Below, piece by piece: positions 25,745 through 34,511 of a stretch of DNA of 64,000 nucleotides (within the stretch, counting starts at the first letter, position 1; every line of letters begins with the position of its first letter). The DNA is taken from NCBI GenBank assembly GCA_031409275.1, contig JANNXA010000051.1:128001-192000 (forward strand). The letters run 5' to 3'. The stretch comes from Planctomycetota bacterium. Its GTDB lineage: Bacteria; Planctomycetota; B15-G4; SIAN01. The notes under the pieces are model-generated. The model saw nothing but the letters and a program-made list of their open reading frames with translations, had not been told where the DNA came from and did no database searches. A program made the position numbers and the translations under genes.

Positions 25745-25826
25745 GGGGACGGCGCGCACGCTGAACAAACCAACGTCTCGGCGGCCTCTTTTGCGTTGGT
25801 GAGTGCAACCAAGCGGGAGAGGCCCA

Positions 25827-28733
25827 ATGAATCGCGCGACCGTCGATCCCGATCTGCTCCGAACCCACGCGCCCTTCCTGCGCTCGCTCGCGCGCGCGCT
25901 CCGCGATGACATCTCGGAAGCCGAAGACCTCGCGCAGGAGACGATGCGACGCGCCCTTGAGCGCTCACCGAGGGAGTCGGCCACCGGAGCCGTACGCGGA
26001 TGGCTCGCGCGAGTCATGAGGAGCGTGCGGCGCGAGGCGAGTCGCGCCTCTCAACGTCGGCGGGCGCGGGAGCAGAAGGTCGCGCCACCCGAGGCGAGCG
26101 ACTCCCACGATCCCGCGCGAATCGTCGAGCGCCTCGAGCTCGTGGGGCACCTGGCGAGAGCCGTCGCCGAACTGCCCGAACCGTATCGCGGCACGATCAT
26201 CGCGCACCACCTCGACGAACTCTCGCCGGCTGCGATCGCGAGGCGCAGCTCCATTCCCCTCGCGACGGTGCATACCCGGCTTCGGCGTGGCCGCGAGTTG
26301 CTCCGAAAGAGGCTCTGCCCGCGCGATGACTCCGACGCGCGCGTGGCATGGATGGCGGGACTCGACCTGCTGACCCACCAGGGCGGCACCGTGCTGCCGG
26401 CATGGATCTCCCTCCGGATCGCCGCGGCGCTGCTCGTCTGCCTCACCACCGGCATCGGCGGATGGTGGTGGCTCACGGACGGGGAGTCGCACCGCTTCGC
26501 CAGCAGCCGCGCGAGCCGATCAACGGAGCCGATGATTGCAGCAGCAGCCACGACTCCACCTCACGATCCCGTTCCCGCTCGTGAACCTGCCCCATCCGCG
26601 AGTGACTGGACGATTACCGAGGACCGACCATGCGTCGCGGCGCAGGTCGTCCTGGCCGAGAGGGGCGAGCCGGCCGTGGGTGCGACCGTGAGCTTCCGCG
26701 AGATCGGCGCCACCCCGCTCGCTAGGGAGCAGTTCACCGTCCGGCTCTACTCCCGCATCCACGACTGGTGGTTCGAGGATGACGATCAACGGCAGCGCGA
26801 CGTCGAGGCGTTCCTCGCCGATGCCGGCGGGCCGCTTCGCAAAGTCGGGACGACCGATGGAGAAGGAGTCGTTGTCCTGCCGCCGTTCGAGGACGCGATC
26901 GTCTTGGCCACGCTCGGAGAGCGGCGGCTGATCCGGCGCCTCTCCAGCACCGACGCTCGCCCCATCCGCCTTGCGCTCGAACTCCCTGCCGCGCTGACGA
27001 TCCGGGTCGTCGATCGGCACGGCGAGCCGGCCCCGAGGACCTCCGTCGCGATGGAAGCCGACAACGGCCGCAACCGCGAACTCCTCTGGCGCAGCCACAC
27101 TGGACTCGATGGTTGCGTCGTCGTTCCGCCCCGCCATTTCGAGCGCTTCCGAGAGGAATACGCGAGTTCACTCTGGGCCGTGACGTTGGGCCTAGCGGCG
27201 ACAGGCTCGCCAACGGTGACGATCGATCCGGCAGAGCTGCCGACGACGCCGGTGGAGCTGATGCTGCCCGCCTGCGGAAGAGTGCGAGTCGAGCTACGCG
27301 ATGCGGACGACCGGCGAATCACGTCGCCCGCCCTGGTCGGACTCGCGCGCGCCGACCCTGAGCGTCCCGTGAACCAGTCAGACATCGGCATGGCGTGGCG
27401 CCTCACCAGCGATGGGTTCGCGGAGTTCGAAGAGGTGCCGCTCGGCCTCCCACTGATCGCCTGCCCGGTGGATCGTCGGCATTCGAGCGCGCCGCTCGAG
27501 TTCTCCGGACCAACTCGCGAAGGAGAGACTGCGCAAATCGTGATGAAGTTCGGCCCGCGGCTCCCGATGCTTCGCGGGCGCATCGTGCAAGCGGACGGTT
27601 CACCGATGGGAGACTGGAGCTTCCGATCGCGCTGGTCGATCGCATCGGCTCCTCACCTCGGGCGTGTCGTGACGGATCGCGAGGGCCGCTTCGAGCTCTC
27701 ACTCGCGCGGTACGACTTCGAGACCGACGAGCCTCATGGGACTCCAGTCGACGTCGGCTGGTTGACGCTGCGCCCCTTCGAGCCCGACCTGCTCGACCCC
27801 GCGCTCTTGGAAGCGGCGATCGTGCTGCGACTCGAGTCGCACCTGCTCGAACCAGGCGATCACGATCTCGGCGACCTGCGCTGCGCCGACTCGCAGGTGG
27901 TCGCTGCGGGGCGCATTGTCGATTCCGCCGGCGAGCCAGTGCGCGGCGTCGACCTCGCCGTCCTGGCGAACACCGAGCGCGGCTGGCGCAAGGTCTCCGG
28001 ACTCGAGTCGAGGAGTTCGGACGAGGGGGCCTTCACGATCGTCGGCTGGACAGCGCTCACACCGCTGCAGTGCGCGGTCGAGTCGTCCGGTTGGCGCAGC
28101 GCCAGCCCGATCGCATTCACGCCGGGCATGCGCGACCTCGTCGTGGTGGTCGATCCGACCGCCAGCCTGCGCGGCCACGTGCTGCTCGACCCGGACATCC
28201 CCGTCGATCAGATCGCCCTGCGACCGTCGGAGTCGCTGCAACCGCTCGGCGACGTGCGCGAACTGGTTCGGCGCGGCACCCCGCCCGTCACGCTGAGAGA
28301 GGACGGAAGCTGGTGCATCGCGCTGCTCAGCGCGGGCCGCGGAACACTCGAAATCGGGCTCGGCAACGGCGTCGTCGGCCACTTCGCGATCGAGCCGATG
28401 GTGACCATCGAGGGCGTCGCCAACGAGAAGGAGGGCGAGCAAGATCCCCGCCTCGCCGCGATCGACCTGCGTGGACGGCTGCGCGTGATCCCGATCGAGG
28501 TTCGCGATCGCGACGGAGCGCCGCTACCGGGCGCGCGAATCGAGGCGCGCTCCGTGACTGGCGACGGAGCGCTCGGGCCGCGTCGGAGGTTCATCACCGA
28601 TGGCCGCGGCGACGCGAAGCTGCTGGCGGCAGCGGCGCGCTACACCTTGCTCGTAAGCAAGGACGGCTTCGCGGAGCGCGCGCTGGCCGATGTCGGTAGC
28701 GACTGCACGATCGAACTCGATCGTCAGCGTTGA
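25827..28733 (+). CDS. ECF sigma factor fused via a TM helix to a long extracytoplasmic region of carboxypeptidase-regulatory-like beta-sandwich repeats
   Basis: sigma2 (AEDLAQET, GWLARV) and sigma4 (LPEPYR...ATVHTRLRRGRELLR); TM IAAALLVCLTTGIGGWWWL; repeated GR(I/V)VD..G.P and TD..G.F motifs. Confidence 0.8.
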   Translation: MNRATVDPDLLRTHAPFLRSLARALRDDISEAEDLAQETMRRALERSPRESATGAVRGWLARVMRSVRREASRASQRRRAREQKVAPPEASDSHDPARIVERLELVGHLARAVAELPEPYRGTIIAHHLDELSPAAIARRSSIPLATVHTRLRRGRELLRKRLCPRDDSDARVAWMAGLDLLTHQGGTVLPAWISLRIAAALLVCLTTGIGGWWWLTDGESHRFASSRASRSTEPMIAAAATTPPHDPVPAREPAPSASDWTITEDRPCVAAQVVLAERGEPAVGATVSFREIGATPLAREQFTVRLYSRIHDWWFEDDDQRQRDVEAFLADAGGPLRKVGTTDGEGVVVLPPFEDAIVLATLGERRLIRRLSSTDARPIRLALELPAALTIRVVDRHGEPAPRTSVAMEADNGRNRELLWRSHTGLDGCVVVPPRHFERFREEYASSLWAVTLGLAATGSPTVTIDPAELPTTPVELMLPACGRVRVELRDADDRRITSPALVGLARADPERPVNQSDIGMAWRLTSDGFAEFEEVPLGLPLIACPVDRRHSSAPLEFSGPTREGETAQIVMKFGPRLPMLRGRIVQADGSPMGDWSFRSRWSIASAPHLGRVVTDREGRFELSLARYDFETDEPHGTPVDVGWLTLRPFEPDLLDPALLEAAIVLRLESHLLEPGDHDLGDLRCADSQVVAAGRIVDSAGEPVRGVDLAVLANTERGWRKVSGLESRSSDEGAFTIVGWTALTPLQCAVESSGWRSASPIAFTPGMRDLVVVVDPTASLRGHVLLDPDIPVDQIALRPSESLQPLGDVRELVRRGTPPVTLREDGSWCIALLSAGRGTLEIGLGNGVVGHFAIEPMVTIEGVANEKEGEQDPRLAAIDLRGRLRVIPIEVRDRDGAPLPGARIEARSVTGDGALGPRRRFITDGRGDAKLLAAAARYTLLVSKDGFAERALADVGSDCTIELDRQR

Positions 28734-31376: not shown

Positions 31377-32138
31377 ATGTCCGCGAATGCTCGTGCCTCG
31401 AATTCCAGCGGCCGCACGCTGCAGCTGCTGCTCGTCGTCATCGCGCTCGGCGTGGGCGGCTACTACCTGCTACCAGGGTTGCGCACGAGGGTCGATCAGC
31501 AGCTCGAAAAGGTGGGCGGCTGGAACGACGCGGCGCGCCGCCACGACCCGGTCGGTTTCATCGACTTCTCGATCACCAAGCTCGAGACGAACATCGGCAA
31601 GTTCGACGAGGTGAAGGGAAGCCTCGCGATCGCCAAGGTGCAGCTCGCGAAGCTGCACGAACAGAACGCGTCGAAGCTCGCCTTCGCCGGCAAGCAGCTC
31701 GACGAGTTCAAGGGCGCCTTCAAGGCAGCGACGGGCGGCAAGGGATGGCCCGTCGACCTCGCGGGCAAGAGCTACTCCGAAGCCGACCTGAAGCAGCAGG
31801 TGAACCTCCTGTTGAACCAGAAGAGCTCCTTCGAGAGCGTGTTGAAGCAGACGCAGTCGGGGCTCGACGCCACCGGCAAGCGCGAGATGGAGATCGTCGG
31901 GCGCGTGACGGAGAGCCGCGCCAAGCTCGACCTGCTGAAGACGCAGCGCGAACTGGTGAAGGTCGCCAAGCTCACCGCCGACACCGAGAAGCTGCTCGGC
32001 GAGGTCCATGACGTGCTGATCGAGAACGAGGCGCTCTCGGCCGAGAACCCGGTGCGCACGGTCGAGGAGCTGATGAAGCAGGCGGAGTCGGGCAGCTCGA
32101 CGTCGAACGCCAACGTCGACGCTTTCCTGAACGGATGA
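31377..32138 (+). CDS. Membrane-anchored coiled-coil protein, PspA/IM30-like
   Basis: N-terminal TM (LLLVVIALGVGGYYLL); DPVGFIDFSITKLE; long heptad helices; C-terminal VDAFL helix. Confidence 0.55.
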   Translation: MSANARASNSSGRTLQLLLVVIALGVGGYYLLPGLRTRVDQQLEKVGGWNDAARRHDPVGFIDFSITKLETNIGKFDEVKGSLAIAKVQLAKLHEQNASKLAFAGKQLDEFKGAFKAATGGKGWPVDLAGKSYSEADLKQQVNLLLNQKSSFESVLKQTQSGLDATGKREMEIVGRVTESRAKLDLLKTQRELVKVAKLTADTEKLLGEVHDVLIENEALSAENPVRTVEELMKQAESGSSTSNANVDAFLNG

Positions 32139-32887
32139 ACGTCCGCCGCGATCGAGTCTTCTCCGCGTCGAACTCCGGGAGGATCGCGCTCGCCCTTGCG
32201 CTGTTTGCAGGGGCGGGATGCGACGACCCCGCCGGTCGCCGCAGCTCGTCGCCGCGCGCGCCGACGAAAGCGCCGGTTCCTGCCAGGTCGAGCTGGTCCA
32301 CCGACGAGATGGCCGCCGACCCGGAGGGCTACCTCGCCTGGGCCGACGCGCAGCTTGAACAGCAGACGGCGACGCGTCGCACGCGCATCGACGCGGTGGC
32401 GGCGCGCCGCGCGGAGCTCGAGCAACGGCGCGACGGTTTCGGCACCAACCTCTCCGACCTGCGCAACGTCGAGAAGCGGCTCGGCGATGCCCTTCGCAAG
32501 GCAGAGGACGAGGATCGCTTCCCGCTGCGCATGGGCGGACGCACGTTCGAGCGCGCCAAGGCGAAGTCGATCCTCGCGGAGCTCGCGCGCCTGCTCGAAG
32601 AGCGCGGGCCGTTGCTGGCGACCTACGACGATGGGATCACGCGGCTCCGTGCAATCGAGGCGTCGCTGAAAAGCGACGTCGAGCGGCTCACGGCTCTGCG
32701 CGACAAGCTTTCCGTCGACCTCGAGCAGGTGCGCGTGAGCCACGGTGTCGCCGAACTCGAGCAGCTGCGATCGACCGAATCGGAGATCGCCCACTACGCC
32801 AAGATCCTGGGTTCGCTGGCCGAGGAGTCCTCCGGGTCGTTGCCGGCGGCTCCCCCGCCGATCGACCTCGACCAATTGCTGGAGTGA
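32135..32887 (+). CDS. Coiled-coil lipoprotein, paralog of the upstream gene (PspA/IM30-like)
   Basis: Lipobox-like LFAGAGC; DPEGYLAWADAQLE; FPLRMGGRTF matches WPVDLAGKSY; C-terminal IDLDQLLE; ATGA overlap. Confidence 0.55.
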   Translation: MNVRRDRVFSASNSGRIALALALFAGAGCDDPAGRRSSSPRAPTKAPVPARSSWSTDEMAADPEGYLAWADAQLEQQTATRRTRIDAVAARRAELEQRRDGFGTNLSDLRNVEKRLGDALRKAEDEDRFPLRMGGRTFERAKAKSILAELARLLEERGPLLATYDDGITRLRAIEASLKSDVERLTALRDKLSVDLEQVRVSHGVAELEQLRSTESEIAHYAKILGSLAEESSGSLPAAPPPIDLDQLLE

Positions 32888-32891
32888 TGCC

Positions 32892-34511
32892 GTGAGCAAC
32901 TTCGTGTCGCGGGCGCGCGCTCTCTTCTGCGCCGCCCTGGCCCTGCTCGTCGTGAACGGCGCCGCGCATGCGCAAGGCGACGGGATCAAGAACCTCGCCG
33001 CCGACGCGGAGCTGGTCGAGACGCGCACGGAAGTGCCGCGCCTCCTGCCCGCGGCACCCTACGAGATGAAGGATGGCGTCGTCGCCATCGAGCTCTCGGA
33101 GTACGCCGGCTATGCCGGACTGATCGCGGCGAACGGCGGGCTCGCGCCCAACCCGGAGTCGTGGTTCGCGAAGAAGCACGGCTTCCAGCTCCAGATCACG
33201 CTCTCCGAAGAGGAGAGCTGGTCGTCGCTGAACAGCGGCCGCATCGCCGCCTCGGCCACCACCGCGGATGTCCTCGCCGTCTACGGGCGCCAGTTCCAGG
33301 TCGTGGTGCCGGCGCAGATCGGCTTCTCGCGCGGCGCGGACGGCATCGTCGTTCGCAGCGACATCAAGCGCATCAACCAACTCAAGGGCAAGACGCTCGC
33401 GACCGCGCAGTTCACCGAAGCGGACTTCTTCCTGCGCTACCTCGCGCAGGAAGCGGGCCTCGGCGTGGCGATGCTGCCGGACCTCGCCGCAAAGCCAGAC
33501 CCCGAGAAGATCAACCTCGTCTACTGCGCGGACGCGTTTGGCGCCGGCGACCTGTTCCAGCGCGACTTGAAGGCGGGCCGCAACCGCCTGGCCGGCTGCA
33601 TCACCTGGGCGCCGAAGACGACCGACGTCGTCGACGCCTGCGAAGGCAAGGCGACGCTGCTGATCACCAACCGCAACCTCCTCGTCGTCGCGGACGTGCT
33701 GCTAGTCAACAGAGGTTTCGCGCAGGCGCATCCCGAGGTGGTGACGGGGCTCGTCGACGGGCTGCTCGAAGGCAATCGCCGCGTTCGCGAGTCGCCCGAC
33801 GCCTACGCGGGACTGCTGGAGAAGGCGTTCGGCTGGGAGAAAGGGGAGGCGCGCGGCGAGCTCGCCAAGGTCCACCTCTCGAACCTGCCGGAGAGCTTCG
33901 CCTTCTTCTCGGGAGCGATCGACGCGGCCGGGAGCTTCGGCGGCATCTATCAGTCGGCCGTCTACGCCTACGGCGCGGAGCTCATCAAGAACCCGACGGA
34001 CGCCGATCGCTTCGTCGACTTGAAGGCGCTGAAGGCGGCGGAGGCGGGCGGCGCCTACGCCGGCCAGAAGATCGCCATCGCGCCGATCCAGACCGGAAGC
34101 GGCCCCTCGGTCGAAGGCGATCCGCTCCTCACCAAGGACATCCGCTTCCTCTTCGAGCCGAACTCCGCGACGCTCGACCAGAAGAACCAGAAGAACCTCG
34201 ACGACCTCGCCGCGATCGCGCGTCTGCTGCAGGTGAGCCCCGGCTCGACCGTGCTCCTGCGCGGCCATGTCGACAACGCGATGATCGGCGAGTTCCGCAA
34301 GCAGGGGGGCGAGACGTTCGTGCGCCAGATGGCGCTGAAGGCGATGGAGCTCAGCAAGAATCGCGCGAACGAGATCCGCCGGCTGCTGGCCGAGCGCCAT
34401 CAGATCGACGTTTCGCGCATCGAGACCGTCGGGCGCGGTTGGGACGAGCCGAGCAGCAAGGAGAGCGAGCAGAACCGCCGCGTCGAAGTGCAGTGGTTCA
34501 CCATCGAATGA
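32892..34511 (+). CDS. NMT1/THI5-like substrate-binding domain fused to a C-terminal OmpA-like peptidoglycan-binding domain
   Basis: Signal peptide; YAGYAG, SRGADGIV...I..INQLKGK, LVVADVLLV; then IRFLFEPNSA.L, LRGHVD, LSKNRA, NRRVEV. Confidence 0.8.
   Translation: MSNFVSRARALFCAALALLVVNGAAHAQGDGIKNLAADAELVETRTEVPRLLPAAPYEMKDGVVAIELSEYAGYAGLIAANGGLAPNPESWFAKKHGFQLQITLSEEESWSSLNSGRIAASATTADVLAVYGRQFQVVVPAQIGFSRGADGIVVRSDIKRINQLKGKTLATAQFTEADFFLRYLAQEAGLGVAMLPDLAAKPDPEKINLVYCADAFGAGDLFQRDLKAGRNRLAGCITWAPKTTDVVDACEGKATLLITNRNLLVVADVLLVNRGFAQAHPEVVTGLVDGLLEGNRRVRESPDAYAGLLEKAFGWEKGEARGELAKVHLSNLPESFAFFSGAIDAAGSFGGIYQSAVYAYGAELIKNPTDADRFVDLKALKAAEAGGAYAGQKIAIAPIQTGSGPSVEGDPLLTKDIRFLFEPNSATLDQKNQKNLDDLAAIARLLQVSPGSTVLLRGHVDNAMIGEFRKQGGETFVRQMALKAMELSKNRANEIRRLLAERHQIDVSRIETVGRGWDEPSSKESEQNRRVEVQWFTIE

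Follow-up and report, generated by a model that had tools for sequence, protein, structure and literature searches.

Three tightly coupled genes at positions 31,377 to 34,511 of a 64,000-nt stretch of DNA from a Planctomycetota bacterium (NCBI GenBank assembly GCA_031409275.1, contig JANNXA010000051.1, positions 128,001 to 192,000; the whole stretch is called the window) encode two distantly paralogous coiled-coil proteins predicted to be exported (genes 1 and 2) and a solute-binding/OmpA-like fusion protein (gene 3). This cassette is likely a stripped-down, inside-out version of the PspA/TM-Snf7/AAA operon, in which TM stands for transmembrane. In the reading preferred here, to which we give about one chance in two, genes 1 and 2 are a PspA-derived pair that faces the periplasm and co-assembles on the inner membrane, gene 3 acts as a wall-bound sensor or dock, and the membrane is stabilized or shaped without ATP.

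The genes, all read from the forward strand, are as follows.

31377-32138, + strand: gene 1, 253 aa, divergent PspA-like family
32135-32887, + strand: gene 2, 250 aa, predicted lipoprotein and paralogue of gene 1
32892-34511, + strand: gene 3, 539 aa, GTG start, predicted solute-binding/OmpA-like fusion

As an earlier note on this DNA had stated, the coupling is tight: the stop of gene 1 and the start of gene 2 share an ATGA overlap, and 4 nt separate gene 2 from gene 3.

Neighborhoods and Phylogeny of Gene-3 Loci

Gene-3 loci were collected from genomes and metagenomes, and their neighbors were labelled by local hidden Markov models (HMMs) and checked against Pfam. A sufficiently complete gene 3 was present in 131 loci, 111 of a close subfamily and 20 of a distant one. 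The close loci comprise 68 with PspA-system genes, 21 with the gene 1-gene 2 cassette and 22 with neither in view. Gene 2 lies directly upstream of gene 3 in those 21 of 111 loci, and gene 1 is also visible in 18 of them; in the other three the sequence ends within 500 bases upstream. The co-occurrence of the three genes elsewhere, for which the earlier note had proposed a synteny survey, is thus far beyond chance. The 21 loci include near-identical copies and represent about ten separate Planctomycetota lineages in the tree.

In this tree (FastTree), the gene-3 copies of cassettes nest among those of PspA operons; two changes are reconstructed for the cassette, driven by one long branch, which is compatible with one origin or more. 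PspA usually lies directly upstream of gene 3 in PspA-system loci, and genes 1 and 2 fill that slot in the cassette. The neighboring PspA, TM-Snf7, double-AAA and TauC-type permease genes have been lost: PspA, the TM-Snf7 two-TM coil protein, the double AAA protein, the permease and the ABC ATPase were found in 0 of the 21 cassette loci, only 8 of which are flanked by 3 kb or more on each side. PspA-system genes accompany gene 3 in 18/20 distant loci, and a TauC-type permease is found in 13/20 of these and in 0/111 close ones. The genome to which the window belongs (93% complete) gave no TM-coil match, and its AAA matches are generic single-domain proteins only. PF04012 is missing from this genome and from 16 of 18 selected genomes. 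We do not count this as support: across the phylum, 283 of 401 genomes are without it, and the model barely detects the divergent PspAs of the operons.

Variants of these arrangements were also observed. At locus L122:5510-11155 the order is gene 1-gene 2-gene 3-gene 2'-gene 3', with the gene 2-gene 3 unit in tandem behind a single gene 1; this tandem duplication suggests that gene 2 and gene 3 form a matched pair. At L124:1-2575, the gene right after a gene-1 relative encodes a binding protein of another kind, a lipoprotein combining SBP_bac_11 and vWA domains. Tandem binding-protein/OmpA pairs occur in operons that also encode a vWA protein and a strongly divergent PspA at L015, L016, L017, L020, L022, L026, L048 and L078, and vWA proteins flank many binding-protein/OmpA genes.

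In the window, the cassette is preceded by a DUF2911 gene and followed by a gene for an AlaX-like tRNA-editing protein and by an ABC-2 exporter pair, so that none of the adjoining genes encodes an importer, in agreement with the earlier note. The ABC-2 ATPase/permease pair was rejected as a partner because it is of exporter type and adjoins the cassette in the closest relatives only. A promoter scan of the region found none, and no RNA holder is listed for it. Further upstream, at 25803-28733 of the window, an extracytoplasmic function (ECF) sigma factor is joined via a hydrophobic segment to carboxypeptidase-regulatory-like repeats.

Paralogy and Predicted Structure of Genes 1 and 2

The relation between the first two genes, distant paralogues according to the earlier note, is invisible to BLASTP (21% identity, E=1.2) and emerges from profiles. 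Their families align in hhalign at 98.4% with an E-value of 6e-15 (98.9% with larger sets), and the HMM of the gene-1 family matches gene 2 at 1.6e-17. By these comparisons, genes 1 and 2 are paralogues. They have in common a W-x7-DPxG(F/Y) motif at positions 49 and 54, respectively (the spacing was first given as x6), and a (W/F)P(V/L)x(L/M)xG(K/R)(S/T)(Y/F) insert at 124 and 129. Gene 2 has the same C-terminal helix as gene 1, plus a Pro-rich linker.

The following elements are predicted in gene 1, the first from hydrophobicity and the others from an AlphaFold2 (AF2) model with a predicted local distance difference test (pLDDT) score of 87.5.

About 15-33: N-terminal signal-anchor helix
H58-122 / H135-196: long helical hairpin (65+62 residues)
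126-133: beta-hairpin insert at the tip of the helical hairpin
H201-222, H229-237, H247-252: short C-terminal helices

Relatives of gene 1 number 293 at E<=0.001. The gene-1 profile matched 20 of 401 sampled genomes of the phylum, 11 of them at E<1e-38. The named relatives of the cassette proteins are Planctomycetota, and the ESM Atlas returned solely unlabelled Planctomycetota clusters (0.94), with no usable named match. Longer fused forms of gene 1 were not found at E<=1e-5 among proteins of 593-2000 aa, which is weak evidence. A weak tblastn match of gene 1 near 236 kb of contig C14 was discarded since the HMM search did not confirm it. Complex prediction for gene 1 (33-253) with gene 2 (50-250) scored 0.01, which is no evidence either way.

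Relationship to PspA and ESCRT-III

The earlier note had called genes 1 and 2 PspA/ESCRT-III-like. Descent from this superfamily is probable, and PspA ancestry is moderately supported by profile comparison, though not proven; membership of ESCRT-III is not established. In the available part of Liu et al. (2021; PMC8281802), an alpha1-alpha2/3 hairpin with short C-terminal helices is the hallmark of ESCRT-III, and the polymers consist of side-by-side hairpins in which alpha5 contacts subunit j+3/j+4. The AF2 model of gene 1 contains the PspA-type alpha1-alpha2/3 hairpin that the earlier note had proposed to look for, together with short alpha4/alpha5-like helices, a layout that is not unique to ESCRT-III.

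Against 75 PspA sequences, the gene-1 family reached 89% in local and 92% in global hhalign alignment, and the merged family 92% and 95%, whereas the controls gave about 1% (reversed PspA), 40% local and 10% global (the CT398 hairpin) and 21% and 3% (LemA). The global alignment is colinear: DP aligns with DP, the G-K-x-Y insert comes to lie where PspA has its hairpin tip, and the final helix is matched to PspA alpha5. Helix 33-47 of gene 1 aligns with PspA alpha0 and is preceded by the TM or lipid anchor; its hydrophobic moment is weak (0.29, vs 0.47 in PspA and 0.25 when shuffled). Among the relatives of gene 1, PspA_IM30 is the commonest Pfam match (21/113 at E<=0.1, best 7.5e-7), and a PspA HMM scored above 10 bits for 16 of 108 members vs 1 of 108 reversed sequences.

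A sister group, family X, is a widespread signal-anchored coiled-coil family of Planctomycetota; one query recovered it from 67/301 genomes of the phylum, in 46 of them at E<1e-25. Over its full length it aligns with gene 1 (97%), and the anchor and the insert are common to both. Its copy in the genome of the window lies at G000:C14:108487-109413 (L239), and other members occupy loci L203-L232; the query copy sits after an ECF-type sigma gene. Pfam gave no consistent family for it, with PspA_IM30 absent from the top 25 of the 56 listed. A lipoprotein at L131:8645-9535 (genome G317) matches both the gene-1 HMM (8e-7) and PspA HMMs (2e-4) and keeps a C-terminus of PspA length; it may be an evolutionary bridge between the gene-1 family and PspA.

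Several results weigh against a PspA-derived pair. The Pfam cut-off of PspA_IM30 was reached by none of the relatives (best 29.4 vs 33.9 bits), the proteins of the window itself have no PspA_IM30 match, and local PspA HMMs placed them outside the top 12 of 36,430 open reading frames (ORFs) of the genome. The gene-1 HMM scored coils of CT398, MotB-like and GGDEF proteins at 20-23 bits, higher than true PspA ORFs (<=12.7 bits). Canonical PspA alone reached 38% local with the gene-1 family, which equals the CT398 control (40%); gene 2 alone gave 8% with PspA; and family X alone gave 27% and 36% (local and global), no better than its CT398 control (24% and 36%), while matching the two-TM coil family at 77%. 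Foldseek returned nothing at E<=0.001, with Vipp1 at ranks 3, 6 and 10 (E about 0.01-0.02). In VIA fold searches, F-BAR/BAR proteins came first (Z 11-11.9) and the ESCRT-III proteins Snf7/CHMP lay among generic coils (Z 9.5-10.2), all below the value of about 13 under which Z is uninformative for helical bundles. Sequence search of the PDB with the gene-1 profile found generic coils, with Vipp1 at E 0.35-0.49. Relative to PspA, about 25-30 residues are missing from the alpha4-alpha5 region, and several genomes matched by the gene-1 profile lack an adjacent gene 3, so that the gene-1 family exists without it.

These data bear on a different explanation, a rather unlikely one in our judgement, by which genes 1 and 2 would be exported coiled coils unrelated to ESCRT-III, forming a BAR-like or LemA-like dimer, or else a rod, by which the inner membrane is spaced or curved and connected to wall-bound gene 3. 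BAR and F-BAR domains lead both VIA searches with 166-189 residues aligned, an unrelated hairpin family attains 40% in hhalign, no member passes the PspA cut-off, and LemA proteins offer an earlier example of anchored membrane shapers that are partly periplasmic, in the available part of 10.64898/2026.10.21.759321. Nevertheless, the Z-scores are below the informative level and identity to BARs is only 5-13%; LemA falls far behind the broad PspA set in the comparisons given above; and the genes occupy the PspA slot beside a PspA-operon gene, with the DP motif and the insert position matching PspA.

Membrane Anchoring and Topology

One TM anchor and one lipobox had been noticed before, and both are seen. 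A hydrophobic helix lies near the N-terminus of gene 1 (KD19 2.09 at residue 17), and 103/108 of its relatives have such a segment, the N-side of which is basic and contains hardly any acidic residues. In gene 2, a lipobox-like Cys29 is followed by Asp-Asp, and the protein is predicted to be a lipoprotein; a lipobox-like Cys is present in 18 of 23 aligned relatives, the others being four with an uncleaved anchor and one that is truncated. In E. coli, Asp at position +2 of a lipoprotein is an inner-membrane retention signal, and gene 2 of the window has Asp there.

Two fusions point to an N-in/C-out orientation for the gene-1 domain, judging from their domain order. In P0252, a single sequence, a SEFIR/TIR domain is followed by a TM helix and a complete gene-1-type domain; it resembles a receptor in which the periplasmic part might oligomerize a cytoplasmic TIR-like effector. 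In P0231, a signal is followed by an exported toroid domain and a gene-1-type domain, with no TM helix between them. The charge bias of family X is N-in in 24/28 members. Periplasmic topology is thus strongly indicated for gene 2 and, with moderate confidence, for gene 1.

It would be quite improbable, by comparison, for gene 1 to be a PspA-like protein of the usual cytoplasm-facing kind to which an anchor was added (N-out, C-in), with the cassette a remnant of the operon predicted by Ravi et al. (2024). Such a view could invoke the cytoplasmic action of the PspA and Vipp1 proteins so far described and the charges around the helix of gene 1, whose neutral net bias (41 N-side vs 42 C-side) counts against a periplasm-facing pair. 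However, Lys or Arg stands on the N-side of the helix in 83 of 103 relatives, with almost no acidic residues, and the SEFIR-TM and signal-toroid fusions as well as the lipoprotein paralogue point outward.

The N-terminus of gene 3 also differs between the two kinds of locus. PspA-operon copies carry an uncleaved anchor there and cassette copies a cleavable-looking signal: a site like that of signal peptidase I was called, by a regular-expression heuristic and not by SignalP, in 17 of 18 distinct cassette copies vs 3 of 71 PspA-operon copies. This swap probably reflects one or two evolutionary events, and it fits a shift of the whole module into the periplasm.

Gene 3, a Solute-Binding/OmpA-Like Fusion

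Three parts are distinguished in gene 3.

N-terminal: predicted Sec-type cleavable signal, AHA|Q
About 50-395: TauA/SsuA/ThiY-type solute-binding domain
About 420-535: OmpA-like peptidoglycan-binding domain with invariant D461 and R491

The fusion of an NMT1-like binding domain to an OmpA-like domain, recognized in the earlier note, is borne out by several searches. Pfam places OmpA (PF00691) at 5.7e-14 and 52.7 bits, above its cut-off, and NMT1 weakly at 0.004; the SsuA-family model TIGR01728 matches at 5e-13. The nearest folds to the AF2 model (pLDDT 76.8) are TauA (E 1e-14, target TM-score 0.74), ThiY (8e-12) and SsuA (4e-11). D461 and R491, the conserved residues of GHxD and LSxxRA, are invariant in 43/43 gene-3 sequences, and in alignment R491 corresponds to the LSxxRA Arg of Omp38; we take both to be residues that bind meso-diaminopimelate (mDAP)/peptidoglycan.

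The family is large: out of 7,997 candidates scored, 3,868 reached E<=1e-10, and frequent labels in it are 'NitT/TauT substrate-binding' and 'phosphate ABC transporter substrate-binding/OmpA'. Conservation of the binding domain is strong, with a mean column identity of 68%. In the window's own genome, which is incomplete, four permease queries gave zero tblastn matches to a TauC-type permease, and 7 of its 10 PF00528 matches could be typed, all as Opp, Pst, sugar or Fe/thiamine-like. The binding-protein/OmpA gene persists without an importer and therefore points to sensing, not transport, for the whole gene-3 family.

An amine or amino compound is a possible ligand of gene 3, given that a recurring neighbor is a flavin amine oxidase bearing a twin-arginine-like signal, which adjoins gene 3 in 38/111 close and 0/20 distant loci. 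Examples include G000:C24:29492-30973 (L233) and the loci L005, L018, L064 and L119-L121, among others. The distribution, the reverse of that of the permease, might be read as a periplasmic scavenging station in which gene 3 passes an amine-type solute to an oxidase exported by the twin-arginine pathway or to an unlinked transporter, with genes 1 and 2 a mere dock and no remodelling. This proposal, which we consider unlikely, would gain from the 55%-identical oxidase in the genome of the window, from the conservation of the binding domain, from the gene-1 relative before the SBP_bac_11-vWA lipoprotein and from the duplicated gene 2-gene 3 unit mentioned above. It leaves unexplained the two retained long PspA-like hairpins and the family members without binding proteins. 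Moreover, the oxidase adjoins only 7/21 cassette loci and is on a different contig in the window's genome, which is a point against the preferred reading, and its absence beside the other 14 (some on short contigs) speaks against scavenging.

Proposed Function

In the preferred reading of a periplasm-facing PspA-derived pair, gene 1 with its TM anchor and gene 2 with its lipid anchor would co-assemble on the inner membrane at its periplasmic (outer) face. Gene 3, attached to peptidoglycan, would bind a small solute and act as a sensor or docking point; it could recruit or trigger the assembly of genes 1 and 2, so as to stabilize or shape the membrane. The cassette has no AAA ATPase and the periplasm contains no ATP, so that assembly would be governed by the ligand and the state of the membrane. 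Polymer formation, co-assembly of genes 1 and 2, contact with gene 3, ligand identity and physiological role are what we infer.

To our knowledge, the ESCRT-III, PspA and Vipp1 polymers described so far all act from the cytoplasmic side. Genes 1 and 2 may be the first example of an ESCRT-III-like family outside the cytoplasm. If this is true, a periplasmic polymer would act on the membrane with the geometry turned around, bending or sealing it, and would have no ATP to drive its disassembly. The cassette would then be a candidate in explaining how the inner membrane of planctomycetes gets its shape; a link to the membrane invaginations of these bacteria might be imagined. A wider version is doubtful: genes 1 and 2 with family X would form an extracytoplasmic branch of ESCRT-III, in which ATPase-free periplasmic polymers, tied to the wall and switched by ligand, build or repair the folded inner membrane of planctomycetes, and whose domain was reused as a periplasmic sensor in SEFIR/TIR receptors. 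The three proteins of the cassette are small, which makes direct expression and imaging feasible.

Comparison With Known Systems

LemA/MamQ are anchored helical proteins, some of them periplasmic, that reshape bacterial membranes, according to the portion of the report available (10.64898/2026.10.21.759321). Genes 1 and 2 differ from them in having no LemA Pfam match and low hhalign values (21% local, 3% global), and no LemA match was found in the genome of the window. The TauA/SsuA/ThiY (NMT1/THI5-like) proteins share the fold of gene 3, but identity is only 15-18%, the OmpA-like domain is fused to it, and no TauC/SsuC-type permease is nearby or was found in the genome. As far as the accessible text of Makarova et al. 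(PMC11188069) goes, archaeal Meth_adaptin ESCRT loci encode a ProX solute-binding protein beside ESCRT genes; the likeness of a binding protein beside such genes is an analogy only, and those loci also encode Vps4 and SPFH proteins, with a binding protein from another family.

Compared with PspA/Vipp1 (PF04012), as presented in the available part of PMC8281802, gene 1 has a DP-capped alpha1, a long hairpin, short C-terminal helices and a colinear profile alignment. Genes 1 and 2 differ by the TM or lipid anchor in place of a strong amphipathic alpha0, the beta insert at the hairpin tip, the shorter alpha4-alpha5, the predicted periplasmic location and the sub-cut-off scores.

The closest system is the PspA/TM-Snf7/double-AAA operon, with or without an ABC importer, that contains a SIG+PBPB+OmpA protein, a genomic prediction seen in the available sections of Ravi et al. 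(2024; PMC11237479; example OGG56892.1). Gene 3 of the cassette belongs to the same binding-protein/OmpA (PBPB+OmpA) family and has a PspA-like gene directly upstream. The cassette lacks the cytoplasmic PspA, TM-Snf7, double AAA, permease and ABC ATPase; it has two exported paralogues, and its gene 3 bears a cleavable signal instead of a membrane anchor. Section 14 and Table S3 of that article (PMC11237479) contain no SIG/TM+PspA architecture, its web-app list being outside this scope, and literature searches, subscription papers and the Ravi web-app tables aside, turned up neither an exported or periplasmic PspA-like protein nor this cassette. The earlier note had not recognized a characterized system here; in this respect, PspA next to SIG+PBPB+OmpA had already been described by Ravi et al. 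The parent operon is already in print, and what is new is the exported paralogue pair in the place of PspA and the loss of the ATPases.

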